Shown here: positions 4,878-51,589 of the stretch, in pieces
Layout: every line of letters starts with the position of its first letter
Position numbering within the stretch: position 1 is the stretch's first letter
DNA from: Candidatus Eiseniibacteriota bacterium
GTDB taxonomy: Bacteria > Eisenbacteria > RBG-16-71-46 > CAIMUX01 > VGJL01
NCBI GenBank assembly: GCA_016867495.1
Contig: VGJL01000002.1
Span: forward strand, 11,185-75,184
Reading direction: 5' to 3'
Length of the DNA: 64,000 bases
Position numbers and translations under genes: made by a program
Notes under the pieces: model-generated
The model's input: the letters and a program-made list of their open reading frames with translations, nothing else
Databases searched by the model: none
What the model was told of the DNA's origin: nothing

Positions 4878-4983
4878 GATCGAATCTCCTCGCCCGCGAT
4901 CCTCGCGGGCGGCAACACGAAAACCCCATCCGCCGTGGGTCGGGGCGACTCGCGGCGGGTGAACGACTCTCGAGCGGATGCGA

Positions 4984-5277
4984 TCAGGCGACAGGCGGCG
5001 CGCGAGGTCGATGAGAGCGGGGGGAGGGGATCGCTGGCGGGCGCGCGACCTCGACCTGTGCGACACAGCCGGTGTCGGCGGGAGCGCCGATGGCTTCCAG
5101 CGGAGAGTCCGGCGGCAGATCCTCCTGCGAGATCGCCAGCTGGCACCAGGAACAGGCGTGGTCCGTGGCGAGAGGATCGTGATCGTGGTGCTCGGCGAAC
5201 TCCGCGACGGCGGCCAGGGCCGTTAACATGCACAGGACCGCAAGAGTGCCGAGAAGAGCGGGCGAGCGCCGTCTCAT
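4984..5277 (-). CDS. Small secreted His/Cys-containing protein (possible metal-binding, DUF2946-like)
   Basis: Internal start of track ORF 4984..5451: MRRRSPALLGTLAVLCMLTALAAVAEFAEHHDHDPLATDHACSWCQL... It has a signal peptide, then HHDHD and CxxC. No clear SD sequence. The C-terminal half is low complexity. Confidence 0.3.
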   Translation of the reverse strand: MRRRSPALLGTLAVLCMLTALAAVAEFAEHHDHDPLATDHACSWCQLAISQEDLPPDSPLEAIGAPADTGCVAQVEVARPPAIPSPRSHRPRAPPVA

Positions 5278-5522
5278 GCGTGAGAGACTAACCGGCCAGG
5301 AGACATGGCGCAAGCGAGTCAGTCTCACGCGCACTGGGAGACCGATGTCGATCGAGCGCGGGAATCCGGGCCGCGGGGGATCCTGTTCCTCTGCGTCGAT
5401 CCCCGCGGCTGAGATCGACCGCGTGATCACCCTCTGCGCGGAGGAACTCAAGCGTCGTATCGACAGGCTGCTGCTGTCGTCTTCCTCCGGCTGATCCGCC
5501 CACCCCGGGCGCCTTCATCCCC

Positions 5523-5551
5523 TTGACGACTTGGCGAGTTGGCCATATAGT
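5523..5551 (+). promoter_or_regulatory. Sigma70-like promoter upstream of the ArsR-family gene
   Basis: TTGACG (5523-5528), a 17-nt spacer, then TATAGT (5546-5551), ending 13 nt before the ATG at 5564. The spacer carries an operator-like 18-mer that is repeated at 5898-5915. Confidence 0.45.
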
Positions 5552-5563
5552 CTGTAAGCAGAG

Positions 5564-5863
5564 ATGGCAACGCAGACTGAGAGAAACATCTTCCGCGCGC
5601 AGGCGAGGGTCCTGAAGGCTCTCGCCAACGAGTCGCGCCTGATGATCATCGACCGCCTGAGCCGGGGGGAGTGCAGCGCCGGGGATCTGACACGTCTGGT
5701 CGGATCGGACCAGACGACGGTCTCCAAGCATCTGGCCGTCCTCAGAGCCCACGGCATCGTCGACGACCGGCGTGAGGGGAGCATCGTCATCTATCGCCTG
5801 CTCACGCCGTGCGTGATGAGCTTCTTCTCATGCGCGACTCAAGTGATGAAGGAGTCGAGGTGA
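5564..5863 (+). CDS. ArsR/SmtB family metalloregulatory transcriptional repressor
   Basis: 99 aa: ...FRAQARVLKALANESRLMIIDRLSRGECSAGDLTRLVGSDQTTVSKHLAVLRAHGIV..., a classic ArsR winged-helix pattern. Confidence 0.9.
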   Translation: MATQTERNIFRAQARVLKALANESRLMIIDRLSRGECSAGDLTRLVGSDQTTVSKHLAVLRAHGIVDDRREGSIVIYRLLTPCVMSFFSCATQVMKESR

Positions 5864-5921: not shown

Positions 5922-7445
5922 ATGGGAGAGGCGCATCAGTTGGGCGAGCTGATCATCAGGCTGCTGCAGGGCGGGCTCGGAAATCTCGCGTCCTACCTGG
6001 CCGCGCACGTGCTCCTCTGCCTTGTTCCGGCCTTCTTCATTGCGGGGGCGATGACCGCGCTTGTCCCGAAGCAGGCCATTACCCGCCTACTCGGGCGCAG
6101 CACCCCTCGGGCGATCTCATACCCGGCCGCGGCCCTCGCGGGATCGGTCCTGGCCGTCTGCTCCTGCACGATCGTTCCGATCTTCGCGGGGATTTACAGG
6201 AAGGGGGCCGGTCTGGGACCGGCCATCACCTTCCTCTTCTTCGCCCCCGCTGCGAACATCCTCGCGCTGATCTACACGGGCGGCCTGATCGGCGCGGATC
6301 TCGCCATCGCTCGTCTGATTCTCTCTCTCGCTTTCGGCATCGGCATCGGCATGATCATGGCGTTGATCTTTCGCCATGAGGACGCGGCGCACGATCGAGA
6401 CACAGACGCGCTCTTCGCAGGGGCATCGGAAGGAACGCGGAGCCCGCTGTACTTCCTTCTTGGCCTGGTTGTGGTGCTGCTCGTCGGAACGTTGAAGCTC
6501 GACTTCCTCAGCAGAGCCTATGCAGAGATCACACTGTCATTCGCCGGGGGGGTCGGTTTGCAGGAAGCGCTCCTTCGTCTCATTCCCTTTGACGCGACGC
6601 GGGGGGAGGAAGGGGTGAGCGTTCAGGGAGCGATCCTGATCGCTTTCCTTGCGCTCATCGCCGTCACGGCGTGGCGCGGGCTCAGAAACATCGATGAGGG
6701 ATGGAACCGGTGGGCCAAGGCCTCCCTGGCTCTCATGGCGGTCACACTGTTGATCGCGGCGGCGCGAATCGCTCCCCGCCCCGAGGGCCTCTCCATTGGA
6801 TTCACCGGCCGCTTCGTCGGAATGGGGCTCGGCATGACGGGAATCGCCTTGATGGCGCGATGGCGCCTCGGCGCCGACGAGACGCGCGCCTGGCTCGCGG
6901 AGAGCTACAGATTCATCCGCCAGATCTTCCCCCTGCTCATCGTCGGAGTGTTCGCGGTAGGCATTGCCCGCCAGGTCATCCGCCCCGAATGGATCAAGTC
7001 TCTCGCCGGGGGCAACACGCTGCTGGGGAATGCCGCCGGGGTGCTCTTCGGAGTCTTCATGTACTTCCCGACGCTGGTGGAAGTCCCGATCGCCAAGATG
7101 TTCCTCTCGCTCGGGATGCATCGAGGCCCGCTCCTGGCGTATCTGATGGCTGATCCCGAGCTGAGCCTGCAGAGCATACTGATCATCTCGGCTATCATCG
7201 GTCGAACGAAGACCTGGACGTACGTGGGCTTGGTCGCGGTCTTCAGCGCGCTCGCCGGACTCATCTACGGCGCGTGGGTGGACCGCAAGGGGATCGCGCT
7301 CCTCTTCGTCTATCTCATCGTCTTACTCAGCGTTGTCGCGCTGGGTCTGCTCCTGGTGAAAAGACGCAATCGTCGGCGAGCCGCGGCGCGCCTGCTAGCA
7401 TCTCAGGTGCTGTCAAGTCCGTCTGACTCCCCTTGCGGTTCATGA
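5922..7445 (+). CDS. Permease, ArsP/DUF318-like (predicted organoarsenical/metalloid permease family)
   Basis: Track ORF starts at TTG 5898, inside the operator-like repeat, so it was trimmed to the ATG at 5922. Polytopic. The motif CSCTIVPIFAGIYRKGAGLGPAITFLFFAPAANI is typical of the two-Cys permease family found in ars clusters. Confidence 0.75.
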   Translation: MGEAHQLGELIIRLLQGGLGNLASYLAAHVLLCLVPAFFIAGAMTALVPKQAITRLLGRSTPRAISYPAAALAGSVLAVCSCTIVPIFAGIYRKGAGLGPAITFLFFAPAANILALIYTGGLIGADLAIARLILSLAFGIGIGMIMALIFRHEDAAHDRDTDALFAGASEGTRSPLYFLLGLVVVLLVGTLKLDFLSRAYAEITLSFAGGVGLQEALLRLIPFDATRGEEGVSVQGAILIAFLALIAVTAWRGLRNIDEGWNRWAKASLALMAVTLLIAAARIAPRPEGLSIGFTGRFVGMGLGMTGIALMARWRLGADETRAWLAESYRFIRQIFPLLIVGVFAVGIARQVIRPEWIKSLAGGNTLLGNAAGVLFGVFMYFPTLVEVPIAKMFLSLGMHRGPLLAYLMADPELSLQSILIISAIIGRTKTWTYVGLVAVFSALAGLIYGAWVDRKGIALLFVYLIVLLSVVALGLLLVKRRNRRRAAARLLASQVLSSPSDSPCGS

Positions 7446-7458
7446 AGGAGGTGGCTTC

Positions 7459-7692
7459 ATGTCGAGTGTCCTTGTGCTCGGTCCCGGATGCCAGAAGTGT
7501 CAGACTCTCTATGAGCGGGTCACGCAGGCGGCGGAGGAGATGGGTCTCGCCTGCGAGATCGCCAAGGTGACCGACATCGAGGCCATCGTCGGCTTCGGCG
7601 TCCTCTCGACCCCGGCGCTCGTAGTCGACGGTACGGTCAAGATGAGTGGCCGCGTTCCGACGGTCGCGCAACTGAAGGAGATGCTCAAGTGA
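7459..7692 (+). CDS. Thioredoxin-fold redox-active disulfide protein (redox-active disulfide protein 2 type)
   Basis: 77 aa: VLVLGPGCQKCQTLYE...STPALVVDG. CxxC in a thioredoxin-like context. Commonly linked to ArsP-like permeases. Confidence 0.85.
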   Translation: MSSVLVLGPGCQKCQTLYERVTQAAEEMGLACEIAKVTDIEAIVGFGVLSTPALVVDGTVKMSGRVPTVAQLKEMLK

Positions 7693-8231
7693 AGGAACCT
7701 CGGGCCTTGAGCTATGCCCCAGATCGCGGCGGCTGGATGCTTGGTTTGTCGAGTCGCCCTCTTGTCGTCGCGACGGCGCTCGCTCTCCTACTCGTCGGAG
7801 GCGGCCTTCTTGCCTATGCGGCGGCCGATGATCCCAAGCCCGTCGCTCCGGCCGATACTCTGGACTCCGCGAGCGATCAAGCCGCGCTCTCGCGCCAGAT
7901 CATCTCCTACTACTTCCACACCACGAAGCGCTGCGTGTCCTGCCGCAAGATCGAGGCCTATGGGCGGGAGGCGATCGAGGCCGGTTTCCCCGAGCAGTTG
8001 CGCCGCGGCGAAATCGTCTGGCTTCCCGTCAACATCGACGAGAAGGACAACGAGCACTTCGTGGAGGACTATCAGCTTTTCACCAAGTCGATCATCCTCG
8101 TGGAAAGGAACGACACCACGCAGGTTCGCTGGAAGAACCTCTCGCGGGTCTGGGAGCTGCTGAACGACAAGTCGCGCTTCGTGCAATATGTCCAGGAGGA
8201 GACGCGCGCCTATATGGAGTCACCGAACTGA
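7689..8231 (+). CDS. Membrane-anchored thioredoxin-like protein, ArsF family-like
   Basis: 180 aa with an N-terminal TM segment and then ISYYFHTTKRCVSCRKIEAYG...WLPVNIDEKDNEHFVEDYQLF, which matches my memory of the ArsF-family pattern. The start may instead be the internal Met at 7737. Confidence 0.6.
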   Translation: MKEPRALSYAPDRGGWMLGLSSRPLVVATALALLLVGGGLLAYAAADDPKPVAPADTLDSASDQAALSRQIISYYFHTTKRCVSCRKIEAYGREAIEAGFPEQLRRGEIVWLPVNIDEKDNEHFVEDYQLFTKSIILVERNDTTQVRWKNLSRVWELLNDKSRFVQYVQEETRAYMESPN

Positions 8232-39922: not shown

Positions 39923-40074
39923 ACGCGGGGCATGGTAGCACGGCCGAAGGCGCCGTTCACCGGTCCCCTGCCTCCACTCGCCGATCATCCATGGTCCGCC
40001 GCTTGATCAGGCGCGATCCTCTCCGTGTGGACGAGAAGAGGCCTCAGGGCTTCGGGAGAAAGGAGAGGAGAGTC

Positions 40075-40824
40075 ATGAACGAGTTGAGGACAAGTCACAG
40101 CGTCGGGAAGCTGATCCTCGGAATCGCCGTCGTCGCGCTCGGCCTGATCTTCACGCTGAGCAATCTCAACTTGATCGATTCGGACCGCTATCTGCGATTC
40201 TGGCCGGTCGTCCTGATCGCCTTCGGCCTGGAGAAACTCCTCCAGCCGCGCGCGTCGAGCGGCCGGATGTTCGGATTCATCCTCGCCGCGGTCGGCGTGC
40301 TGCTCCTTCTTCGCAACCTCGCGATGATCACGTGGAACATCTGGGATCTCTGGCCGCTGATCCTGGTTCTGATCGGCTTCAGCATCGTCTGGGGAGCCCT
40401 CGGCCGCCGGTCGGGCCGGGAACGCTTCCGCTGCCGCCCGGATGTCTCGGTCTCCTTCGACGACGACGCGAAGAGGCGGCAGGTCGACCCGGAATCGACG
40501 CTGAACATCAGCGCCGTCTTCGGAGGCGATGAGCGCGTCGTCACGTCTCAAGGCTTCCGCGGCGGGACGGTTTCGACCATCATGGGGGGGTGCGACATCG
40601 ATCTGAGGCAAGCATCGATCGCCCAGGGCGAAGCGATCCTCGATGTCTCGGTCGTCTTCGGGGGGGTCGAGATCCGGGTCCCCGAGGACTGGAAGGTCGT
40701 GCTGCGCGTCAACTCGATTCTCGGCGGCGTGGAAGAGAAGACCCGCAAGCCGATAGGGGATGCGGCCAAGACGCTGGTGATCACGGGCAGCGTCATCTTC
40801 GGCGGAGTGGAGATTCGCAACTGA
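40075..40824 (+). CDS. LiaF-like cell-envelope stress protein (4 TM + DUF2154-like domain)
   Basis: Trimmed to MNELRTSHSVGKLILGIAVV... Four TM segments, then ...MGGCDIDLRQASI...LDVSVVFGGVEIRVPEDWKVVL...VIFGGVEIRN. Confidence 0.6.
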   Translation: MNELRTSHSVGKLILGIAVVALGLIFTLSNLNLIDSDRYLRFWPVVLIAFGLEKLLQPRASSGRMFGFILAAVGVLLLLRNLAMITWNIWDLWPLILVLIGFSIVWGALGRRSGRERFRCRPDVSVSFDDDAKRRQVDPESTLNISAVFGGDERVVTSQGFRGGTVSTIMGGCDIDLRQASIAQGEAILDVSVVFGGVEIRVPEDWKVVLRVNSILGGVEEKTRKPIGDAAKTLVITGSVIFGGVEIRN

Positions 40825-40858
40825 TCCTGACGGATCAGAGAGAGGCAGGTCGGCAGCC

Positions 40859-41959
40859 GTGACGCCGCTGGCGACGACCCGGCGATTCATCCCGCCCTAT
40901 CTGGCGGCATGGGTTCCCATCGCCGGGCTCCTTGCGGCGATGCTCCGTCTGACGCCGGGGACGACATGGACCGGCGCCCTGGCCGTCGCGATTCCCGGCT
41001 CGGCGCTCCTTTCCTTCCTCTGTGTCGCGATCCGCTATCCCGTGCGCGGGCTGCCGGCAGAACGGATGCCGGTGTCGCGCTTGCTCGCGCTCCACCTGGG
41101 CGGCGCAGCCTTCGCGACGGCGGTCTGGCTCGGCGCGCTCAGGCTCTGGGTCGAGGTCCTCGGGCAGACGCGACCGTTCGAGCTCCTGCCGGAGGCCTTC
41201 CGGAGCCACGCGCCGCTGCTCGCGGCCGCCGGGTTGCTGCTCTATCTGCTGGCCGTGACGTTTCACTCGCTCCTGCGCGCGGTGGAGCGGAGCCGCGAGG
41301 CCGAAAGGCGCGCCCTGGAGCTGAGCCTCATCGCGCGCGACGCGGAGATCGCCCTGCTCAGGTCCCAGGTCGATCCGCACTTTCTCTTCAATGCGCTGAA
41401 CTCGATCGCCGGCCTCACGCGGGACGATCCGGATCGCGCGCGCACTCTCTGCCTGCGTCTCGGTGACTTCCTCCGGGCGGGACTCAGGATCGGGAGTCGG
41501 GCGCGCATTTCGCTCCGCGAGGAGCTGGCTCTCGCCCGCGACTACCTCGAGATCGAGCGGATCCGCTTCGGCGCAAGGCTCCGGGTCGCGGAGGATGTCG
41601 ACGAGGCAGGCCTCTCGTGCCCCGTGCCGCCCTTGATCCTCCTGCCTCTGCTCGAGAACGCTGTGCGTCATGGGATCTCGGGACTGGTCGAGGGAGGCGA
41701 GGTGCTGATCGGCGTTCGCGTGGGGGGAGGGGGCATCGAGATCATTGTCGAGAACCCTCGCGACGCCGAGGCGCGATCGAGGGCCGGGGAAGGGATCGGG
41801 CTGCGGAACGTTCGCCGACGGCTGGAGACGCTCTACGGCCGGGCGGGGGGACTCGCGATCCGAGAGACGCCGGAGAGCTTCAGGATCGAGATCGCGATTC
41901 CCCGGCAACTCGCGCCGGAATCGGGCGACGGCGGCGGCGCGAGCGAGAGGCAAGGATGA
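40859..41959 (+). CDS. Sensor histidine kinase, LytS/YehU (His_kinase) family
   Basis: Membrane N-terminus, then LLRSQVDPHFLFNALNSIAGL (the family H-box) and an HATPase region LLENAVRHGI...GIGLRNVRRRLE. Confidence 0.85.
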   Translation: MTPLATTRRFIPPYLAAWVPIAGLLAAMLRLTPGTTWTGALAVAIPGSALLSFLCVAIRYPVRGLPAERMPVSRLLALHLGGAAFATAVWLGALRLWVEVLGQTRPFELLPEAFRSHAPLLAAAGLLLYLLAVTFHSLLRAVERSREAERRALELSLIARDAEIALLRSQVDPHFLFNALNSIAGLTRDDPDRARTLCLRLGDFLRAGLRIGSRARISLREELALARDYLEIERIRFGARLRVAEDVDEAGLSCPVPPLILLPLLENAVRHGISGLVEGGEVLIGVRVGGGGIEIIVENPRDAEARSRAGEGIGLRNVRRRLETLYGRAGGLAIRETPESFRIEIAIPRQLAPESGDGGGASERQG

Positions 41960-42768
41960 TGAGCAAGACCAGCGATCTGCGCCTCCTCATCGTGGATGAC
42001 GAGGAGCCGGCCCGGCTGCTGCTGCGGGACTATCTGCGCGGCGCGCCCGGCGTGACGATCGTGGGGGAGTGCGCGGACGGTTTCGCGGCGGTCAAGGCGG
42101 TCACGGACCTCGATCCCGACCTCCTCCTGCTCGACATCCAGATGCCCAAGCTCGACGGATTAGAAGTCCTCGAGCTGATCGGGCGTGAGATCGCGGTCGT
42201 CTTCGTCACGGCCTATGACGAGTACTCGATCCGGGCCTTCGAGATCCACGCGGTCGACTATCTGCTGAAGCCCTACTCGCGCGAGCGGCTCCTCGAGGCG
42301 CTCGATCGGGCCCGCGAGAGGGTTGCGCGGCTCGGCCCGCGCCGGAAGGGAGCGCCGGCGTCGCAAGCCGCCGCCACCGCCGGCGCCGGGAGCGCGACTC
42401 TGCCCGAGACGGTCGCCGCCATGGACATGCGCCGCTCGAGGCGGCCGCTCGAACGGATCCTCATCCGAGACAGAGCGCGCATCCATGTGATCCCGGTCGG
42501 CTCGATCCACTACGTGGAGGCGCAGGACGACTACATCTCCATCGTGACCAAGGACAGGAAGCTCCTCAAGCAGCAGACCCTGAACGAACTGGGGCAGGCG
42601 CTGGACGAGAGGCGCTTCGTCCGCGTTCATAGATCGTTCCTGCTCAACATCGAGCATCTGGCGAGGATCGAGACTTACGCGAAGGACTCGAGGATCGCGA
42701 TCCTGAAGAGCGGCGCCCAGCTCCCGGTCAGCCGGAGCGGATACGAGAGGCTGCGGGGGTTGCTGTGA
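41956..42768 (+). CDS. LytTR-family response regulator
   Basis: ATG 41956 overlaps the kinase stop. Receiver domain LRLLIVDDEEPAR...LLLLDIQMPKLDG, then a C-terminal LytTR domain (IHYVEAQDDYISIVTKDRKLLKQQTLNELG...FVRVHRSFLLN). Confidence 0.9.
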   Translation: MMSKTSDLRLLIVDDEEPARLLLRDYLRGAPGVTIVGECADGFAAVKAVTDLDPDLLLLDIQMPKLDGLEVLELIGREIAVVFVTAYDEYSIRAFEIHAVDYLLKPYSRERLLEALDRARERVARLGPRRKGAPASQAAATAGAGSATLPETVAAMDMRRSRRPLERILIRDRARIHVIPVGSIHYVEAQDDYISIVTKDRKLLKQQTLNELGQALDERRFVRVHRSFLLNIEHLARIETYAKDSRIAILKSGAQLPVSRSGYERLRGLL

Positions 42769-44611
42769 CGCCTTCGACTTCCGCTCCAGTCCTCGGGCGG
42801 TTCCTTCCACGCTCCTGCAGCGAGGGCGTGGATTCCGGCGATTGCCGCCCAAACAGCTCAGCGTAGAGGCCGCCTTGCCCGATCAGCTCCGAGTGGGTGC
42901 CTTCCTCGACGATCCGGCCTCTCTCCATGACGAGGATGCGATCGGCGTCGACGACGGTGGAGAGCCTGTGCGAGATCATGATCGTCGTTCTCCCGGCCAT
43001 CAGCGCGTCCATCGACCGCTTGACATGAGCTTCCGACTCCGCGTCCAGCGACGAGGTCGCCTCGTCGAAGATGACGATCGGCGGGTCTTTCAGGATCGCC
43101 CGCGCGATCGACAGTCTCTGCCTCTGCCCCCCGCTTAGGCAGGCGCCGCGCTCGCCGACGATGGTGTCGTACCCGCGGGGGAGCTCGCGAATGAACTCGT
43201 CGGCTTGGGCGAGGCGCGCCGCCCGCTCGATCTCCTCCGGGCCGGCGTCGGGATTCGCGATCCGCAGATTGTCGGCGACGCTGGCGTGGAAGAGAAAGGT
43301 CTCCTGGGGGACGACGCCGATCCTGAGGCGCAGATCATCGAGCGAGAGATCGCGCAGGTCATGCCCGTCCAGGAGGATCCTCCCCTTCTCGACGTCGTAG
43401 AGCCGGCAGATGAGATGCCCGACGGTGCTCTTCCCTGCGCCGCTCGCGCCGACGATGGCGACCTTTTCTCCCGGCGCGATCGCGATGTCGACGTCTTCCA
43501 GGATCAGCGGGCCGCCGTTCCCCCCGTAGCGGAAGCGGACGCTCTCGAAGACGATCTCCCCGCGTGTTCGGCCCGGGTGAACGGGCGTCGGGCTCTCGCT
43601 GACGCTCGGCTCGAGGTCGAGGAAGGCCAGAATCCTCTCGACCGCGCCCACTGCCGTCCGGAGTTGGACGTTGAGGAAGCTCAGGCGTTGGGCCGGCTCG
43701 TACATCCGTGTCAGGTAGCTGATGAATGCCACGAGCGTGCCGATCGTCATGGTCCCGGCTATGGACGCCCGGCCGCCATACAGGTAGATGAGAGCAGGCC
43801 CGACGGCGACGACGAAGAGGCCGAGCAGCCTCGATTGCGAGCCGAGGACTCCCATGCGGACGCTCGTGCGGGCATGGGCGCGCAACCTCCGCGCGAACGA
43901 CTCCCCTCTTGCCGCCTCGTTCGTGAAGGCCTTGATCTCGCGTATCCCCGCGATCCCCTCCTGCAGCTCCTCGACGACCTCGCCGTAGCGGACCCGATTC
44001 TCGCGTGCAGCGGCGAGAAGGCGGCGGTCATGGAAGCGGAAAATCGCGAGCAGCAAGAGCAAGGTGGCCGCGCCGATCAGAGTCATCGGGAGGCTCATCG
44101 CCGCCATGAAGCCGAGCATGAGGAGGATCGTGAAGGAATCGGTCACGAGCATGAGAAAGGCGCTTGTCGTCAAGGCCTGGACGGCATCGACGTCACCCAT
44201 GACCCGCGCCGTCATCTGCCCCGACTTGGTTCCGTCGAAGTGATCCGTCGACAGGCGCAGGAGGCAGTCGTGCATCCGTCTGCGAAGAGTGAGGACGACC
44301 CCGGCGCTCACCCGCAGGAAGAGGACGTCGGTGGCGAACATGCAGAGCATGTAGCCCGCGTGGATCGCGGCCATCGCGCTGACGATGCGGAGCAGCATGG
44401 CGCCGTCCCGCTCGGGCAGGGCCGCATCGAAGATCTGGCGCACGAGCAACGGGATCGTGAGGGAGGCGGCTGTTCCGATTCCCATGAAGGCCAGGCAGCC
44501 GAGCTGCTCCCTCCAGTACGGCTTCAGATAGCCGGCAAGGCGCAGGAGGCTTGTGCGCGTGCGGGGCGCCCCCTGCGGGAATGTCCCGGTCCCTGGGGTC
44601 AGCATGATCAT
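42728..44611 (-). CDS. ABC exporter, fused TMD-NBD (MsbA/type I exporter-like), no C39 peptidase domain
   Basis: Trimmed to the ATG at 44611 (ATGA overlap with the upstream gene). Six-TM domain, Walker A GASGAGKST, signature LSGGQRQRL, Walker B IVIFDEATS. Its 3' end overlaps the convergent response regulator by 41 nt. Confidence 0.9.
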   Translation of the reverse strand: MIMLTPGTGTFPQGAPRTRTSLLRLAGYLKPYWREQLGCLAFMGIGTAASLTIPLLVRQIFDAALPERDGAMLLRIVSAMAAIHAGYMLCMFATDVLFLRVSAGVVLTLRRRMHDCLLRLSTDHFDGTKSGQMTARVMGDVDAVQALTTSAFLMLVTDSFTILLMLGFMAAMSLPMTLIGAATLLLLLAIFRFHDRRLLAAARENRVRYGEVVEELQEGIAGIREIKAFTNEAARGESFARRLRAHARTSVRMGVLGSQSRLLGLFVVAVGPALIYLYGGRASIAGTMTIGTLVAFISYLTRMYEPAQRLSFLNVQLRTAVGAVERILAFLDLEPSVSESPTPVHPGRTRGEIVFESVRFRYGGNGGPLILEDVDIAIAPGEKVAIVGASGAGKSTVGHLICRLYDVEKGRILLDGHDLRDLSLDDLRLRIGVVPQETFLFHASVADNLRIANPDAGPEEIERAARLAQADEFIRELPRGYDTIVGERGACLSGGQRQRLSIARAILKDPPIVIFDEATSSLDAESEAHVKRSMDALMAGRTTIMISHRLSTVVDADRILVMERGRIVEEGTHSELIGQGGLYAELFGRQSPESTPSLQERGRNRPRTGAEVEGVTATPAASRIRSG

Positions 44612-45597
44612 GCTCCGGCGGAGCCGTCGGCCTCCGCGGCCGCGAGGAACCTGCGCCATCGTGCCTCGAGGGAGTCCACCGAGCACCCGTAGACGCGCCG
44701 CACGGCGCCGCGAGGGTCCCCCTTCGAGCTGCCATAGAGATCCTTGAAGCTCGCGACCCCGCGATCTCGGATCAGGAAGCCGGCGAACGATCCCGCCATC
44801 GGGTAGCTGAGCCACGGGTCGGCCTCCGTGAAGCGGGGGTCGTCGAGCAATCGCCCGAGATGAAGCTCGCCGCCGCGGGACCGCGCCCGCAGGTATGTGG
44901 AATGCGCCTGCTCGCGCAGCGCCGCGTATTCCGCGGCTCCCTCCTGCATGAGCATCGGAGGATCCCCGAGGGAACCAAGGAGGATGTGGCAGCTCTCATG
45001 CAGGGCGCCGACGCGGAGATACCTTCCATGGACAGCGTGGACCTCCGCCTGGCGGGAGTGCGCGTGCGCCGGCATCGGATCGCCCGTGGCGAGCTTCTTG
45101 TGCAGACTCGACTCGTACAGGAAGTAGACGATGGGTCGGGACCGCTCCCATCGAAGGTCGAAGAGCTCTTCAAGCTCCGCGAGCCCCGCCTCCAGGGCGG
45201 CGGCGATCTCCTCGCGCTCGTGGTCCGCCGTCGAGCCGGGAATCAGATGGAGGAGAAAACGGGGCGACTCGATGGCGCGCCACTTCGTGCCGAGGAGAAG
45301 CTCCTCGCCCGCCTCACACGGCCGATCCTGCAGCGCGAGGATCTGGGCCAGGTGGATGTGCAGGATGGCATCGTGCCCCGGAGAGTCGAGCGCGCTCCGG
45401 AGGGCCGCGAGCGCGGCGTCGACTCCCTCATGACCGAGCGAACGGGCGAGATGTCGCAGGTGACATTCCCTGGCGTAAGAGCTTCCCATCCCGAGCCCGG
45501 CGCAGATCCCCTCGAGTTCGTCGAGGGCGGTGAGGTCGTCGGGACAATCCCGGAGGTGGGCTTCCAGGATCGGGACGAGCCGCGCGGACTCTTGCAT
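44608..45597 (-). CDS. Cytoplasmic HExxH protein (gluzincin / Peptidase_MA-like), candidate leader peptidase
   Basis: 329 aa with no signal peptide. GALHESCHILLG (HExxH) followed 13 residues later by LMQEGAAEYA (third-ligand Glu context). N-terminal helical region. SD GGGAGG before the ATG. Confidence 0.5.
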   Translation of the reverse strand: MQESARLVPILEAHLRDCPDDLTALDELEGICAGLGMGSSYARECHLRHLARSLGHEGVDAALAALRSALDSPGHDAILHIHLAQILALQDRPCEAGEELLLGTKWRAIESPRFLLHLIPGSTADHEREEIAAALEAGLAELEELFDLRWERSRPIVYFLYESSLHKKLATGDPMPAHAHSRQAEVHAVHGRYLRVGALHESCHILLGSLGDPPMLMQEGAAEYAALREQAHSTYLRARSRGGELHLGRLLDDPRFTEADPWLSYPMAGSFAGFLIRDRGVASFKDLYGSSKGDPRGAVRRVYGCSVDSLEARWRRFLAAAEADGSAGA

Positions 45598-45668
45598 CGG
45601 GACCTCCCTGAAAGATGCGGGCCGTTACGGGCCTCGCTGGGGCGTCATGACATCCTCCCGATCGGAAC

Positions 45669-45701
45669 TGGCCTGGGCCGCCCGCTCGCTGACCCAGGCC
45701 A
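45669..45701 (-). promoter_or_regulatory. 9-bp-stem hairpin between the peptide gene and the peptidase gene (attenuator/processing-site candidate)
   Basis: TGGCCTGGG (45669-45677), a 15-nt loop, then CCCAGGCCA (45693-45701). It lies 23 nt downstream of the peptide stop on the minus strand. Confidence 0.4.
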
Positions 45702-45723
45702 GACCGATCGCTCGGATGGGCTT

Positions 45724-45837
45724 CTAGAACGGATCGGCGATCAGCCGGGGCCAGCAGTTCGGCCAGCAGTAGTAGCACGGCAGGCAGATGTGCGCCCTTC
45801 CCTGCACCTGGCCGGAGACCTTCTTCAGCTCGAGCAT
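45724..45837 (-). CDS. 37-aa Cys/Trp/Tyr-rich candidate RiPP precursor peptide (not in the ORF track)
   Basis: Manual translation: MLELKKVSGQVQGRAHICLPCYYCWPNCWPRLIADPF*. GGAGG lies 8 nt upstream of the ATG (45837). 35 of 37 sense codons end in G/C, matching the local coding bias. It lies between a radical SAM/SPASM gene and a peptidase/ABC exporter pair on the same strand. Confidence 0.6.
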   Translation of the reverse strand: MLELKKVSGQVQGRAHICLPCYYCWPNCWPRLIADPF

Positions 45838-45915
45838 TCCTCTCACCTCCTGTCCTTTGGGATTCTCAGGCGCCCCGCAACGATCGACCAGGCGCCGCCC
45901 GGCGGGAGCCCCGGC

Positions 45916-47220
45916 TCACGCCGGCGCCCCCCACTCCCCCCTGTAGGGGTCGTAGCTGCAGTGGATCGATTTGGCCGTCAGCTCGCCCGTGGGCCCGTAG
46001 GTGATCGGCCGGCAGTCGTGGCACGCGTATCGGTACTCGCAGTCCCTGCAGACCTCGATCTTGTCGAAAGAGAGATCCCAGTATCTGCGCAGATCCCCCT
46101 CCACGATCTCGCGGAGGCTCCTCTCACAAACATTCCCGCAGGGATGGTCGCGTTGCATGATGCAGGGGTTCACGTCGCCGGTGCTGCTGATCGCGATCTT
46201 TCCCTGCCAGCAGCTATTCCCGTTGCACCGCCGTATGAAGGTCGCGCGATCGGTCCTCATGAACTCCGCGCGCGTCTTGTATGCGGTCGTCTTGGAGAGC
46301 TTGTCGGGAACCAGCTCGTCGTCATTGCCCCGGCCCGAGGGGCGGACGAGATCGAACCCCGGGGCCTCCATCCCCAGCTCGCGCACGAACTCCATTGTTT
46401 CGCGCACGTAGTCCTGGTTGTGCTTCATGACCGTCACCGCGAAGCGCGGCTGGATGCCTCGCTCCTTCAGGCGGGCGACGTTGCGCATCAGCCGCTCGAA
46501 CGATCCGCTTTTCTTGGTCACGAGGTCATGGATCTCCGGCCGCTTGGAGTAGAGGGAACAGGAGACCTCCATGCGAAGGTCGACGAGCCTGTCGATCCAC
46601 TCATCCTTCAGGAAGGTGAGATTGCTGAAGACGCCGACGCTCGAATACCCCAGCTCCCTTGCGCGGCCTGCGAGGTCGAAGAGCCGATCCCCGTATAGAA
46701 ACGGCTCCCCCCCGATGAACTGGACGGCGCGGCACTCGAGCTGGGCGCCCTCCAGGAGCAGCCGCCGCCACTCCTCGTGGGTCAGGCGGTTCTTCGCCCC
46801 GGTGTCCGCCTGGCTCATGCAGTAGCAGTGGCGGCAGCGGAGATTGCAGTCCTCTCGCAGCTCGAACCAGATGAAGTCGAGCTTCCGGCACGGATCGACC
46901 AAGTCGATCTTCGGTCGCGGGCTCGGCTGCTCGCCGAACTCCCCCATCCCGGCCTCGGCGACGCGGCGGAGGAAGTCGAGGATCTCGTGGAGCGGCGCCT
47001 CCTGCACCTTGGCCACGGTCTCCTCGATCCCGCACTGCCGCTCGCATGCCTCGATCACTCGCGCCGCGAGCGGGTCGATGCTATAGACCTCCCCCGATGC
47101 GAGATCGTAGAGAGCGCCCCGCGAGGCGCCCCTGACGAGAAACGCGTCCGGCTTGAGGGAGAAGTAGCGCAGCGTGGCTCTCTGATCCCTTCGCTGGGAG
47201 AAGCTGACAACGCCTTGCAT
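45916..47220 (-). CDS. Radical SAM/SPASM peptide-maturase-like enzyme with an N-terminal PqqD/RRE-like region
   Basis: Trimmed to the ATG at 47220 (GGAGGAGG 8 nt upstream). CNLRCRHC radical SAM motif. C-terminal Cys cluster CWQGKIAISSTGDVNPC...PCGNV...CRDCEYRYACHDC (SPASM). The first ~95 aa (...YDLASGEVYSIDPLAARVIEACERQCGIEETVAKV...LDFLRRVAEAG) resemble a peptide-recognition element. Confidence 0.9.
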   Translation of the reverse strand: MQGVVSFSQRRDQRATLRYFSLKPDAFLVRGASRGALYDLASGEVYSIDPLAARVIEACERQCGIEETVAKVQEAPLHEILDFLRRVAEAGMGEFGEQPSPRPKIDLVDPCRKLDFIWFELREDCNLRCRHCYCMSQADTGAKNRLTHEEWRRLLLEGAQLECRAVQFIGGEPFLYGDRLFDLAGRARELGYSSVGVFSNLTFLKDEWIDRLVDLRMEVSCSLYSKRPEIHDLVTKKSGSFERLMRNVARLKERGIQPRFAVTVMKHNQDYVRETMEFVRELGMEAPGFDLVRPSGRGNDDELVPDKLSKTTAYKTRAEFMRTDRATFIRRCNGNSCWQGKIAISSTGDVNPCIMQRDHPCGNVCERSLREIVEGDLRRYWDLSFDKIEVCRDCEYRYACHDCRPITYGPTGELTAKSIHCSYDPYRGEWGAPA

Positions 47221-47380: not shown

Positions 47381-50300
47381 TCAGAAGGAGCGGGCCGGGG
47401 CGGGCCCGATCAGAACGAAGGGGGCCCAGAAGTAGGGATGAGCGAGGCTCACCGTTCCTCCGCCCTCCGAGCGCGCCCGTGTGCGCAGGTCCCTCTTCGC
47501 GTCCCGAAGAGCCTCTCCCGCATCGAGGCCGCGGGAGAGCCCCGCATAGAAGCTCTCCATCAGCAACGCTGTCGAGGCGTCGTTCACGCTCCACAGGCTC
47601 ACGAGCGTCTGGGCGGCCCCCGCGCGCAGGAAGGAGCGGCCGAGCCCGAGAACCCCTTCCCCCGCATAGAGGCGGCCGAGCCCGCTCTCGCAGGCGCTCA
47701 AGGTCACCAGCTCGCAGTCAAGCGGGATCGGGAGGATCTCGTGCGCGTGGAGGAAGCCGTCATCCGCTCCCTCGGGATCCGGCGCGAGGGCGAGCCCGGA
47801 GTAGAGGGGAACCTCCTCGTCGACCGTCCCGTGGGCAGAGATGTGAAGGAATCTGTATGCGGGAGCCAGCGTCTTCAGACTGGTTTCCGTGGCCTCCGCG
47901 CCCGTCAGGCACCGGGATTGGGGAAGGAGCCGGCTCACCCTGCGCGCCTCCTCGGCGGCGAACGGGAGTCGGTCCGTCGATCCGACGGACGCGCGGAGGA
48001 TCTCGGCGCCCTCACGCGCGCCATCCGTCTGACCGCGGCTCGCGAGCGGGTCCGATGCGCCGACGGCGAGGAGTCCGACGCCGGCCCTGCCTTCGCCCGT
48101 CGGGCCCCGCGCCGGCGCGGGGAGGAAGGCGGCCGAGGGGAGATACCGGATCGCGAAGCGGTCGCAAAGGAAGACCGTCCGCCGGAAGCCCCCGTAGAGG
48201 GTGTCTGTCGCGGCTGATTCCGCCTGGGAAACGACGAGCATCTCGAACGGGAGATGATGCAGCGCTCGATCCGGAACGATGTAGAGACGCCTCGCGTCGC
48301 CGATGAACGGCTCGATCGGATCGATGATCCACTCGCGCAGCCTTCGGGCGAGCCTCGCGTCGAAGCTGAGGGTGGACAGGCTGCGCGGCGCCGTCAAGGG
48401 TCCCCGGATCTCTCGGACCAGCTCCTCGATCGCGCGCGAGGTCGCTTCGAGACGGACCGCACGCACGCCGTCTCTCCGGAGCACGAAGCAGAGCGATCCT
48501 CCCAGGCCCAAGGCGTACTCGACGAGCGCCTCGTCGGGAGCGAGAGCCGCCGCGATCGCCCGAGCGTCCGGGTCCGCGCCCGCTCCAAGAGCGGAGCCCG
48601 TGGAGGAGTCTGCCAGGAGGAGATCCTGCCGCGCCCTCGCCCACTCCGCCTTCGTGCGGGAGATCTCGCGTTCGAGCGCGCGCACTCTCGACCGGTCGGG
48701 CCTCCTCCCTCCGGCGATCCCAGCGAGCGATGTCTCGAGCGCCCTGAGCCTTCCTTCCAGGGCGCGCAGGCTCGCCGCGCGAGGGGACTCGATCGGCGGG
48801 TCGACTCGCGGAGCCCCCTCCAGCATCTCATCGCGGAAGGCGCTCGCGCGCTCCTTCTCGCAGATCTCCAGGGCCTCGATGTCCCGGCCGAGCCGGACCA
48901 GGAGGTCCGCGGCCTCGCGGTGCAGGTCGATGCGCCGCTCGATGAAGTCCGCCTTGAGCTCCTCGATGCGCAGCCGACGGCGGACCGACTCCACCGCGTC
49001 GAGGGCCGCGCGGTAGTGCTCGACGGCCGCCTCCGGATCGATCGACCGACTCGCGGCCGCCGCCGCCCACTCGCACTCCCAGACGATCTCGGGATCCCGC
49101 ACCTCCCGCGCCAGAGCGCAGGAGGCGCGGATCTCCTCGACGGCGGCGGACGAGTCGGCCAGCGCCAGGCGGACCCGCCCGCTCCTGCACAGGGCCAGCG
49201 CCTCCCGGCCACGCCGCCCGTCCTTGCGGCTCGAGCGCAGCGCCAGCGATGCTTGATCGAGCGCCCGCGAGGGATCGCCCGACCGCAGGGCGAGGTCGGC
49301 GAGGAACAGGCGCAGCGCCTCCTCCCCGTCCGCATAACCCATCTGCGCGCATCGAGCCAGAGTCCGCTCCGCCTCGGCGATGGCGCGGCTCGAGTCTCCG
49401 AGGCGGAGGGCGACCTCGCAGAGTCCCATCGAGGCTTCCCATGAGCCCTGCTCGGCTCCCATCCCGCAGAAGATGCTGTCCGAGCGAGCGTACGCCTCGC
49501 GAGCGGCGTCCAGTCTTCCGAGGGAGAGATCGGCGCGTGCGATCGTCAGGATCGCCCCGGCGCGGTTGCGCTCGTCCGCGAGCGAGTCCGACAGGGCGAG
49601 GGCACGGCGCGCGTCGGCGAGGGCGGGGAGCGGGTCTCCAAGGGCGAGCGAGCCGCCCGCCCGATGGAGCAATCCCTCGACCTCGTCCACGGGGCTTCCG
49701 ATCGAGCGGGCCAGCGAGATCGCGGTGTCGGCATACTCGATCCCGCGACGGTGATCGCCCGCCAGGAGATGCAGGTGCGAGAGGTTCGTCAGATTCCAGC
49801 ACTCGCTGCCGGCGTCGCCGATCGATCGGGCGAGAGAGAGGGCGGTGTGGAACGACGCCATCGCCTCGCTGAGATCCCCCAGGTCTGTGTGGGTCAGTCC
49901 GATGTTGCCGAGGATCAGCTGCTGCGCCTGCCTGTCCCCGCGGGCGCCCTGGAGAGCGAGCGCTCTCCTGAATCCCTCGAGAGCCGGCCCGTACTCGGCC
50001 AGCTCCCTGCGAACAAGAGCGATCCGGTTGATCGCCCAGGCCTCGTACTCGGCATCGGCTTGCGCATGGAAGACCCTCCGCGCGCGGTCCCAGGCGCGGA
50101 GGGCTTCCCGAGGGCGGCCGGCGAAGTAGTGCGCGCTTCCCATCAGGAGATATCCGTGGCCGAAGCCGCGATCGAGAGCCAGCGCCCCTTGCGCCTGCGC
50201 CAGCGCATCCTCCGGCGATTTCCTCTTCATCGCGACGCATCCGAGGCCGTAGCGGACGCTCGGATTGCGCGGATCGGATGCGAGCAGGCCGCGAAGCTCG

Positions 50301-50599
50301 CTCTCGACCGCATCGAGATCGGCCGCGCGGGCGCGGCATTCGACGAGGCTGAAGTAGGGGCGCGGGTCGCGGGGCGCGCTTCTGATGCTCTCGCGGTAGG
50401 TCTCGATCGCGGCATCGATCGCGCCGGCGTGCCGGAGGCTCTCCGCGCGGGGGAAGTGGACGCGATCCCGGGCCTGATGGGGATCTTCGCGGGCGCACGA
50501 GCAGAGGAAGCAGGAGATGGCCAGCAGGGGAAGAGTGGCCGACGGCGCGACCGGCCGACGGCACGACCCGCGCCGCGGGACTCGAGCGAATCGGCTCAC
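47381..50599 (-). CDS. TPR-repeat CHAT-domain (caspase-like protease) protein with an N-terminal signal/lipobox-like segment
   Basis: 1072 aa. N-terminus ...ATLPLLAISCFLCSCA. Long TPR-like array. C-terminal CHAT domain with the His/Cys dyad contexts FLHISAHG and LVTLSACESG. Confidence 0.85.
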   Translation of the reverse strand: MSRFARVPRRGSCRRPVAPSATLPLLAISCFLCSCAREDPHQARDRVHFPRAESLRHAGAIDAAIETYRESIRSAPRDPRPYFSLVECRARAADLDAVESELRGLLASDPRNPSVRYGLGCVAMKRKSPEDALAQAQGALALDRGFGHGYLLMGSAHYFAGRPREALRAWDRARRVFHAQADAEYEAWAINRIALVRRELAEYGPALEGFRRALALQGARGDRQAQQLILGNIGLTHTDLGDLSEAMASFHTALSLARSIGDAGSECWNLTNLSHLHLLAGDHRRGIEYADTAISLARSIGSPVDEVEGLLHRAGGSLALGDPLPALADARRALALSDSLADERNRAGAILTIARADLSLGRLDAAREAYARSDSIFCGMGAEQGSWEASMGLCEVALRLGDSSRAIAEAERTLARCAQMGYADGEEALRLFLADLALRSGDPSRALDQASLALRSSRKDGRRGREALALCRSGRVRLALADSSAAVEEIRASCALAREVRDPEIVWECEWAAAAASRSIDPEAAVEHYRAALDAVESVRRRLRIEELKADFIERRIDLHREAADLLVRLGRDIEALEICEKERASAFRDEMLEGAPRVDPPIESPRAASLRALEGRLRALETSLAGIAGGRRPDRSRVRALEREISRTKAEWARARQDLLLADSSTGSALGAGADPDARAIAAALAPDEALVEYALGLGGSLCFVLRRDGVRAVRLEATSRAIEELVREIRGPLTAPRSLSTLSFDARLARRLREWIIDPIEPFIGDARRLYIVPDRALHHLPFEMLVVSQAESAATDTLYGGFRRTVFLCDRFAIRYLPSAAFLPAPARGPTGEGRAGVGLLAVGASDPLASRGQTDGAREGAEILRASVGSTDRLPFAAEEARRVSRLLPQSRCLTGAEATETSLKTLAPAYRFLHISAHGTVDEEVPLYSGLALAPDPEGADDGFLHAHEILPIPLDCELVTLSACESGLGRLYAGEGVLGLGRSFLRAGAAQTLVSLWSVNDASTALLMESFYAGLSRGLDAGEALRDAKRDLRTRARSEGGGTVSLAHPYFWAPFVLIGPAPARSF

Positions 50600-50643: not shown

Positions 50644-50752
50644 GTCGCTCAGCGGCAGAGACCCTTCAGTGCGCTCCAGCAGGATGTCGACCGCGCGGTT
50701 GTCCGTCAGCGGTACAGACCCCTCAGTGCGCCCCAGGATGTCGATCGCGCCG
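50644..50752. repeat. Tandem ~53-bp duplication spanning the stop codon and tail-coding end of the 226-aa secreted protein gene
   Basis: Copy 2 (50701-50752) encodes ...ARSTSWGALRGLYR*. Copy 1 (50644-50698, now downstream of the stop) would encode ARSTSCWSALKGLCR* in the equivalent frame. Confidence 0.75.
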
Positions 50753-51386
50753 GCGTCGGCTCCTCCACCTCGAACTCCTGGCTGGCGTCCCATTCGTGCG
50801 GGATCTGATCCTCGAACCATGTGGCAAAGTCGGGGAACCGCCATTGCGATCCGCATCCCAGGAAGATCTCATCGCCTAGGCGCCCCCATTTCGGAGGCAA
50901 TCGGGTCTCGCTCGTTGCCAGGGCCTGGATCCCCATCCAGAACTTGCCCGGTTCGAGAGGGATCGCAACCTCCAGGTCATACCTGTAGCAGGGGAGCTCG
51001 TCGGGATCGTTGCCGATGAAGGTCCCCGGGAGCTTGATCCCCAGGAACTCCGCCAGGAGACCCGTTGGAGTGCAGACCAGATCGCCATAGAAGCGGACAT
51101 TGAACACGGCGCTGTCGGGGTAGGTCGGCCGCCGCTCCATGTAGCCGCCCCACCAGGTCGCCTTGATGATCGTGCAGGTCGATGTGACCTCGCACTCGTT
51201 CGCGACCTCGATCGAGTCGCTGGGGAACTTCGCGCTCTCGGGGATTCCGCGCTGGCTGCAAATGACGTCCCGCGGCGACCAGCGATCGGGCCCTCGCGGC
51301 GCCGCGGGCTCTCCCTCGGCTCCAGCGCCGGCGACGCCGCCGGCGACAAGCAGACCCACTACACATACGCATGCGCTCTTGGACAT
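50706..51386 (-). CDS. Secreted Cys-containing protein with a C-terminal ...STSWGALRGLYR tail
   Basis: 226 aa. AGGAGG SD. Signal peptide MSKSACVCVVGLLVAGGVAGAGA. The C-terminal region resembles that of the 53227..54237 protein. Confidence 0.6.
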   Translation of the reverse strand: MSKSACVCVVGLLVAGGVAGAGAEGEPAAPRGPDRWSPRDVICSQRGIPESAKFPSDSIEVANECEVTSTCTIIKATWWGGYMERRPTYPDSAVFNVRFYGDLVCTPTGLLAEFLGIKLPGTFIGNDPDELPCYRYDLEVAIPLEPGKFWMGIQALATSETRLPPKWGRLGDEIFLGCGSQWRFPDFATWFEDQIPHEWDASQEFEVEEPTPARSTSWGALRGLYR

Positions 51387-51589
51387 GGCGATGATCCTCC
51401 TGCGGGCGGGCTTTACGGACGGACAGACGACTCAGAGAGGCGCGGGATCATTATCGCACAGAGAAGCCTGGTTCTCAAGCCCTGCCGGGTTCCTGCCGGA
51501 TTCTCCGGACGCCGCGGCCGCGCGCGGCGCTCCCCGCCGCCCGGGAAATCCGTCTCGCCACGCGGCCGGCTCCAGGGCATCATGACGCC

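Follow-up and report, generated by a model that had tools for sequence, protein, structure and literature searches.

What is made by four co-directional genes that pair a radical S-adenosylmethionine (rSAM) enzyme with a reading frame of only 37 codons? Such a group lies on the minus strand of a 64,000-nucleotide stretch of contig VGJL01000002.1 from a Candidatus Eiseniibacteriota bacterium (hereafter the window, whose G+C content is 67%). The rSAM gene is followed by the 37-codon open reading frame (ORF), by the gene of a protein with an HExxH motif and by that of an ATP-binding cassette (ABC) exporter; their common direction is evident both from the ORF listing and from direct reading of the DNA. 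An initial annotation had proposed that these linked genes form an operon for a peptide that is made by the ribosome and modified after translation (RiPP). Each of the four genes was found where that annotation had placed it, and every element of the operon reading survived testing. It is very likely that the locus follows the general logic of RiPP pathways, in which a RiPP recognition element (RRE) binds the leader of the small peptide, the rSAM enzyme modifies its core, a peptidase removes the leader and an ABC pump exports the product. Which residues are modified, and into what? The substrate side of this question has a sharp answer, as nearly all cysteines in the cores of the peptide family are followed two residues later by proline (Cys-x-Pro, or C-x-P). 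The chemistry is harder to assign, and a thioether is probably the best explanation. The four genes are the following, TPR standing for tetratricopeptide repeat.

45916..47220, minus strand: rSAM/SPASM maturase with a fused N-terminal RRE, 434 residues, assigned from Pfam matches and homologues
45724..45837, minus strand: precursor peptide gene, 37 codons, with conserved homologues
44608..45597, minus strand: HExxH protein, TPR-like and gluzincin (Peptidase_MA_2-like), a putative leader peptidase, cytoplasmic, 329 residues
42728..44611, minus strand: ABC exporter, fused permease and ATPase, MsbA/HlyB-like, 627 residues, assigned from Pfam matches

Is an ORF of 37 codons a genuine gene? It translates to MLELKKVSGQVQGRAHICLPCYYCWPNCWPRLIADPF, which can be divided into a leader, MLELKKVSGQVQGRA, the motif HICLPC and a C-x-P-rich core. 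The initial annotation had drawn attention to a GGAGG eight nucleotides before the ATG and to the 35 of 37 codons that end in G or C, and both observations were verified.

45846..45850, minus strand: GGAGG ribosome-binding site of the precursor gene, 8 nucleotides before the ATG, in the same place in the homologous loci L001, L089 and L097

An ORF with the same N-terminus follows maturases of 46-70% identity, and in the closest loci it also has the same length and the GGAGG. The homologous peptides read MLELKKVSRPVEERAHICLPCYWCWPWFFPIPAPPID in L001, MLELKKVSRGAEIQAHICMPCYWCWPICWPVAIASPW in L089 and MLELKKVSGGAEAQAHICMPCYYCYPTCMPFWIRQQW in L097, and others follow the maturase in L010, L092, L099, L102 and L103. 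The window holds a single copy; two or three tandem precursors are present in some other loci. As a single query of 37 residues is too short for a family search, a profile was built from nine precursor peptides. It retrieved 41 database peptide clusters, all of the form M[LF]EL[KRT]KV[ST]-x5-8-[AS]HIC.PC followed by a hypervariable tail. A conserved leader joined to a variable core is the standard pattern of RiPP precursors, which supports such a role here. Judged by this conservation of sequence, the 37-codon ORF is a genuine conserved gene. It had been described as hidden: the gene is real, as proposed, and it is called already in public assemblies, having been missing solely from the ORF track used for the initial annotation. 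None of ten precursor variants is covered by an NCBIfam (June 2026) model, and Pfam likewise gave no match to the peptides. No description of a Cys-x-Pro precursor family was found in the literature searched, which covered the rSAM field in part, and an earlier bioinformatic listing is possible. The impression that the peptide fits no named RiPP class agrees with the NCBIfam, Pfam and literature searches.

Related maturases have other small ORFs beside them as well. At 5372..5590 (minus strand) of L001, upstream of the maturase and on the opposite strand, there is a peptide of 72 residues whose leader is of the double-glycine type and whose Cys-rich core contains CFP and CVP. It adjoins a gene for a SAM methyltransferase (4438..5208, minus strand), an arrangement also seen in L002 and L003, and perhaps serves the same locus as a second type of precursor. 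Beside a 51%-identical maturase without a downstream C-x-P peptide, L101 carries a 129-residue ORF of tandem F-C-T-F-K-H/R-G/D repeats (6361..6750, minus strand).

What do the hypervariable tails have in common? The peptide had been described as rich in Cys and Trp; the unifying feature of the core, which the initial annotation did not see, is C-x-P and not this richness. Among the tails that follow HIC.PC, 103 of 113 Cys belong to a C-x-P, against 22 ± 4 in shuffled tails (maximum 36), about 20 standard deviations above the mean. The same holds far from the window. Small ORFs downstream of distant maturases (33-45% identity, from bacteria and archaea) place 181 of their 208 Cys in C-x-P, against 48 ± 6 after shuffling, so that about 87-91% of core Cys carry Pro at +2. 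Nothing around these two residues is fixed to a similar degree. Positions x (W, L, S, T, Y, R, G and others) and +3 both vary widely in the tails; x is often W, Y, F or L in the closest clade and N, G, A, S, D, T or others family-wide, where only Cys and Pro are conserved. The precursors of distant maturases show no enrichment of Arg at +4, where C, G, T and Y are commonest, and their leaders are of the type xE[IL]xLV[TS].

Do these peptides travel with the maturase? The initial annotation had proposed conservation of a small ORF beside orthologous maturases as a check, and the outcome was clear: 55 of the 82 non-redundant loci with sufficient downstream sequence carry, within 1 kb downstream of the maturase and on its strand, a small ORF that contains three or more C-x-P, compared with a background of 6 such ORFs over 343 kb of flanking DNA. 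In several more loci the precursor lies upstream of the maturase or overlaps its end.

Two further kinds of C-x-P protein were observed next to family members. In some distant relatives (L030 7784..8359; also L031 and L019) the place of the small peptide after the maturase is taken by a protein of about 190 residues, which combines a twin-arginine-like signal and about 20 C-x-P in tandem with a PG_binding_1 domain at its C-terminus (1.5e-11). The precursors of the Sporomusaceae type (L006 7275..7544 from a Pelosinus sp., L047, L053, L064 and L067-L070) combine an acidic DDDD leader with 8-11 tandem CWPRQ(Q) repeats, each of which holds WPR, a motif cross-linked by the unrelated rSAM enzyme WprB.

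The next question is what kind of enzyme acts on such cores. The maturase gene starts with the ATG at 47220, preceded by GGAGGAGG, with a ribosome-binding site. It had been read as a radical SAM enzyme with the motif CNLRCRHC and a SPASM-type Cys cluster, and the Pfam matches bear this out: Radical_SAM (3e-20), Fer4_12 and SPASM (2e-7). A search at E<=1e-10 gave 307 homologues, and the wider family comes, by source name, from Deltaproteobacteria, Sporomusaceae (Dendrosporobacter, Pelosinus), Patescibacteria, Latescibacteria, Methanophagales and Woesearchaeota; a scan of genome contigs with the single maturase sequence gave three loci, one of them from Pelosinus. The domains of the enzyme, compared over 32 clade sequences, are arranged as follows.

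46906..47163, minus strand: RRE (PqqD-like) leader-recognition region, approximate, about residues 20-105, placed by PqqD matches in the clade and by the CteB alignment
46825..46848, minus strand: CxxxCxxC for the SAM-binding 4Fe-4S cluster (C125, C129 and C132), invariant in 32 of 32
45958..46212, minus strand: SPASM domain, with C337, C353, C391, C394, C400, C403 and C421 each present in 32 of 32

The N-terminal RRE had also been proposed from the sequence, and here the outcome is divided. The match of PqqD to the window maturase itself is weak (E=0.047, residues 37-74), while in the clade it was detected in 25 of 32 members (best 2.9e-5), which upholds the domain for the group. Among solved structures, the clade profile gave 19 matches in a PDB sequence search, led by SkfB (1e-18) and CteB (8.5e-15). 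CteB (5wgg) is the sole structure that aligns with the profile from the RRE through SPASM, beginning at residue 27, and no anSME structure is among the 19.

Is the maturase a member of a known family? No NCBIfam model reached its cutoff. StsB gave the best full-length match, with 101.8 bits over nearly the full length against a cutoff of 625. The AhbD model (112 bits against 500) covers the core only and the grasp-with-spasm maturase model (96 against 175) the SPASM domain only; AlbA scored 59.9 against 850 and WgkB 70 against 650. The maturase models for SCIFF and ranthipeptides (SCIFF, CteB, PapB) are not among its 25 best NCBIfam matches. Assignment to a non-RiPP rSAM family, which the initial annotation had named as an outcome that would undo its reading, did not follow either, as the model for the anaerobic sulfatase maturase (anSME, TIGR03942) gave 55.2 bits against 349.

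The cysteines of the SPASM domain give a hint on mechanism. Exactly seven are invariant in the 32 clade sequences, with no conserved eighth; Cys332 (46225..46227, minus strand), five residues before the first SPASM Cys, is found in 3 of the 32, most of the others having Tyr or Phe. Known structures of CteB and anSME indicate that a count of seven SPASM ligands, not eight, goes with an open site on auxiliary cluster I, left free for a substrate thiolate. The pattern would fit an auxiliary cluster I that the substrate can reach, as in CteB; it is a lead and not a test.

How would the leader be removed? The third gene encodes a protein with HESCH and EGAAEY, which the initial annotation had called Peptidase_MA-like, and transitive homology and the predicted fold now back that call.

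44941..45000, minus strand: HESCH (H200, E201, H204) and E219 of EGAAEY, the predicted zinc ligands and catalytic Glu, invariant

A word-indexed homologue search returned only the protein itself, and an exhaustive search 416 relatives. Thirteen of these are full-length orthologues; the remainder match residues ~105-320 as one domain inside larger proteins. H200, E201, H204 and E219 are invariant in the 13 orthologues and in 25 relatives, and E219 stands 15 residues past the second His, as a gluzincin third ligand would. PF13485 (Peptidase_MA_2) is matched by 15 of the 25 aligned relatives, with 9e-11 as the best value. An AlphaFold2 model computed from the 13-sequence alignment has a pLDDT of 91 and a pTM of 0.86 (a single-sequence prediction gave a pLDDT of 38) and places an alpha/beta catalytic domain after six N-terminal helices. 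In the PDB, Foldseek matched this model to the M9 collagenase 8jt1 (E 8e-5), to M1 aminopeptidases (IRAP, 4fgm) and to the M61 protein 7xyo, and its N-terminus to TPR proteins; a PDB sequence search with the profile gave TPR proteins only. Resting on its relatives and on a confident model, the assignment is that of a probable divergent gluzincin, Peptidase_MA_2-like, with TPR-like helices. No signal peptide is apparent by inspection. The gene adjoins the maturase and an MLE[LI]KKV precursor in all seven distinct contexts seen (the window, L001, L089, L097, L092, L102 and L103), even though gene order varies among them and the L103 maturase is only 46% identical; an ABC exporter is usually present.

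The last of the four genes overlaps its neighbour, the HExxH stop and the ABC start forming an ATGA. This overlap had been noted before and stands; as for the length of 627 residues given with it, public gene calls use the next ATG, 6 nucleotides later, which yields 625. Since Pfam finds ABC_membrane and ABC_tran only, the exporter has no C39 peptidase domain, as had been claimed. The bacteriocin_ABC and NHLM models stay below their cutoffs and align solely from the transmembrane domain onward. In L001 and L097 the corresponding position is held by ABC orthologues of 55-60% identity. Between the precursor and the HExxH gene there is one more element.

45651..45718, minus strand: strong, GC-rich RNA hairpin immediately following the stop codon of the precursor (-68.5 kcal/mol for a 141-nucleotide stretch, z=-3.3)

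Comparable hairpins of unrelated sequence lie in the same position in L089 (~2105..2145), L097 (~6760..6810), L001 (~7750..7790) and L092 (~7568..7600), the last followed by a U-tract. A hairpin after the last precursor gene is probably an attenuator or a stabiliser of the mRNA, as is usual after RiPP structural genes.

Taken together, how could the locus work? The short leader (MLELKKVS...) of the 37-residue precursor would be bound by the RRE fused to the maturase, which would then act on the core, HICLPCYYCWPNCWPRLIADPF, at the Cys of the Cys-x-Pro motifs. The likeliest chemistry would be an intramolecular thioether of the sactionine or ranthionine type, formed with the Cys thiolate at the open site of auxiliary cluster I. 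Thioethers derived from Cys are favoured because of the nearest relatives of the maturase and the count of its Cys ligands. The leader would next be removed by the cytoplasmic TPR-gluzincin and the product exported by the ABC transporter, while the hairpin probably holds the precursor mRNA in excess over that of the downstream genes. This complete pathway, for which we infer leader binding by the RRE, the atoms linked, the cleavage and the export, is probably the best explanation of the locus, and its thioether step makes it clearly less certain than the general RiPP logic. The gene set with its conservation, the peptide family with its C-x-P and the identities of the domains are shown by the analysis itself.

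Several points weigh against it. No close characterised homologue fixes the chemistry, and the scores for thioether synthases are far below their cutoffs (StsB 102 against 625, AlbA 60 against 850). The argument from seven cysteines is weak, because a ligand role for the nearly invariant Cys163 in the core of the enzyme is conceivable. The peptides lack a conserved acceptor residue, which is unusual for sactipeptides and ranthipeptides; an invariant Cys with Pro at +2 and no acceptor leaves room for a short-range Cys-to-Pro link, for an anSME-like oxidation at C-beta or, in this clade only, for aromatic cyclophanes. The HExxH protein has no Pfam or NCBIfam model at E<=0.01, the Foldseek matches of its model are modest (best E 8e-5, TM 0.53), and both this peptidase and this type of ABC protein are limited to the close clade, distant family members doing without them.

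Could the enzyme work as a sulfatase maturase instead? anSME is likewise an rSAM/SPASM enzyme, and the sulfatase motif C-x-P-x-R, which anSME and FGE recognise, is built around Cys with Pro at +2. The motif is quoted in PMC13638132. Abstraction of a C-beta hydrogen at the Cys of C-x-P would give a thioaldehyde and from it formylglycine or a capture product such as an azole or imine, with no thioether, and a core in which about 87-91% of Cys have Pro at +2 and no acceptor is conserved fits such an oxidation. We consider it unlikely all the same, given that Arg is not enriched at +4, that the anSME model scores 55 bits against 349 and that SkfB and CteB lead PDB matches from which anSME is absent. 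The fused RRE and the seven conserved SPASM Cys count against it too, as anSME has, to our knowledge, no RRE and fully ligated auxiliary clusters. Is the aromatic residue at x then the true target? The window core holds a WPN and a WPR, comparable to the aromatic-X-X motifs of triceptides, x is often W, Y, F or L in the closest clade, and the Sporomusaceae peptides have 8-11 CWPRQ(Q) repeats. A cyclophane synthase could link the aromatic of C-W-P-N or C-W-P-R to a side-chain carbon, leaving Cys for disulfides or metal binding, much as WprB joins Trp-C5 to Arg-C-gamma in WPR motifs (PMC11851443). This has a low probability in our view. WPR is replaced by WPV, MPF or FFPI in the closest homologous peptides, and family-wide only Cys and Pro are conserved while x may be N, G, A, S, D, T or others. 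WprB is moreover a twitch enzyme without the Cys of auxiliary cluster I and works with a separate RRE protein, WprC (PMC11851443), whereas the enzyme of the window has a full seven-Cys SPASM domain, a fused RRE and a WgkB score of 70 bits against 650.

Doubts may also be raised about the other two partners. Some HExxH proteins adjacent to rSAM enzymes, formerly annotated as peptidases, are hydroxylases or oxidative cleavers dependent on alpha-ketoglutarate and iron (PMC12636437), and the protein of the window matches no peptidase model directly. It could be a tailoring oxygenase dependent on 2-oxoglutarate (alpha-ketoglutarate) or a non-catalytic TPR chaperone, the leader being cut by housekeeping proteases or by the caspase-like CHAT protein that accompanies the closest clusters. 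This seems improbable as well. Fifteen of 25 relatives match Peptidase_MA_2, E219 fits the third ligand of a gluzincin, and Foldseek gives M9, M1 and M61 proteins with no alpha-ketoglutarate-dependent HExxH structure in the top 50, nor was one returned by the PDB sequence search. The protein also has no NCBIfam match at E<=0.01, a collection that we take to contain the HExxH-modification model TIGR04267, corresponding to IPR026337. As for CHAT, its signal is lipoprotein-like, and L001, L092 and L103 lack the protein. Finally, might the small ORF be a chance frame or an unrelated Cys-rich metal-binding mini-protein, the rSAM substrate being something other than a peptide? It is very short, and high-GC DNA is rich in spurious ORFs. 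Position, length, ribosome-binding site and protein motifs are nevertheless conserved across loci whose maturases are 46-70% identical, and the 41 peptide clusters, a C-x-P content about 20 standard deviations over shuffles and the RRE fused to the maturase leave this idea very improbable.

How novel is the system? The known kind is that of rSAM/SPASM RiPPs, and what is new is the sharply defined C-x-P substrate motif together with the type of putative peptidase associated with it. A bolder possibility, on which we are doubtful, is that rSAM-modified peptides and proteins with Cys-x-Pro form a new class spread over anaerobic bacteria and archaea, carrying a modification unknown among RiPPs. 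Such a class would comprise hundreds of maturase clusters, with substrates from 33-residue peptides up to the protein of about 190 residues with a twin-arginine translocation signal, about 20 C-x-P and a peptidoglycan-binding domain. Candidates for the new modification would be a short-range i to i+2 thioether from Cys to Pro, or multiple Cys-derived aldehyde or thioaldehyde products made by a logic like that of sulfatase maturases.

Enzymes of the rSAM/SPASM type are among the main sources both of novel ways to cross-link peptides and of antibiotic leads, darobactin being an example. Here a large uncharacterised maturase family is defined by a clean substrate rule: about 90% of core Cys have Pro at +2, and the core shows no other conservation. 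Short precursors, readily synthesised, make the chemistry directly testable, and C-x-P combined with a leader of the E[LI]xLV[TS] type is a motif that genome-mining tools could adopt. A TPR-gluzincin specific to the clade would give rSAM RiPPs a dedicated leader peptidase of a new type, one that was not found reported in the literature searched. Should the chemistry prove to be an ordinary sactionine or ranthionine, the family would still be a useful new subfamily and no surprise.

Which of the surrounding genes belong to the cluster? Besides the C-x-P core and a far larger maturase family spanning bacteria and archaea, the analysis added to the initial annotation a CHAT-TPR protein that accompanies the closest clusters. 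It is encoded just upstream, next to a second gene.

47381..50599, minus strand: TPR-CHAT protein with a lipoprotein-like N-terminus, 1072 residues, Pfam CHAT 1.8e-65
50706..51386, minus strand: secreted protein of 226 residues accompanying the CHAT protein, with a 36%-identical orthologue in L097/L098 on the other side of the cluster

In L097/L098 an orthologue of the TPR-CHAT protein with 47% identity is encoded downstream of the ABC gene, and another is present in the P0009 contig. Because the protein is absent from L001, L092 and L103, it is listed as possibly associated only. A sigma-70-like promoter match is located at 51450..51478, upstream of the gene for the 226-residue protein. On the other flank, genes for a LiaF-like membrane protein, a His_kinase (PF06580) and a LytTR response regulator (39991..42768, plus strand) converge on the ABC gene with an overlap of about 40 nucleotides at the end. 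They were considered as regulators of the cluster and set aside, not being conserved beside it in other loci. Further neighbours in the window are polysaccharide-synthesis enzymes, an fn3-rich protein of 1167 residues and proteins with FlgD_ig C-terminal domains. The 64,000 nucleotides have no Rfam match at gathering thresholds.

How does the locus compare with known systems? The MA-clan enzymes AplP (M1) and MfuP (M61) serve as leader or core peptidases of RiPPs (PMC10885120). With these the HExxH protein would share a cytoplasmic zinc peptidase fold of the HExxH...E type next to a RiPP pathway, and the Foldseek matches include the Myxococcus fulvus M61 protein 7xyo; it is much smaller (329 residues), has a TPR-like N-terminal module and is related to Peptidase_MA_2, not to M1 or M61. 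The likeness to WprB/WprA and the triceptides lies in the one WPR and one WPN of the window core and in the many CWPR repeats of the Sporomusaceae relatives. It stops at the enzyme, since WprB is a twitch protein with a separate WprC (PMC11851443) while here SPASM is complete, the RRE is fused and the aromatic is not conserved family-wide. With anSME/AtsB the maturase has in common the rSAM/SPASM architecture and a substrate determinant of Cys with Pro at +2; it departs from them in its fused RRE, in the lack of Arg at +4 and in substrates that are small leader-bearing peptides instead of sulfatases. The sactipeptide enzymes AlbA, SkfB and StsB link a Cys sulfur to a carbon of another residue. 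They too are of the rSAM/SPASM or twitch type, StsB being the best full-length match in NCBIfam and SkfB the best PDB sequence match, but the hairpin-like layout of N-terminal Cys donors and C-terminal acceptors gives way here to a local, repeated C-x-P motif. The ranthipeptides and SCIFF systems (CteB, PapB) resemble the locus in their rSAM/SPASM enzyme with fused N-terminal RRE, short Cys-rich precursor and frequent ABC exporter. The window differs from them in its leader, in a C-x-P core without conserved Asp, Thr or Asn acceptors, in a gene order that puts the maturase first and in its predicted dedicated gluzincin.

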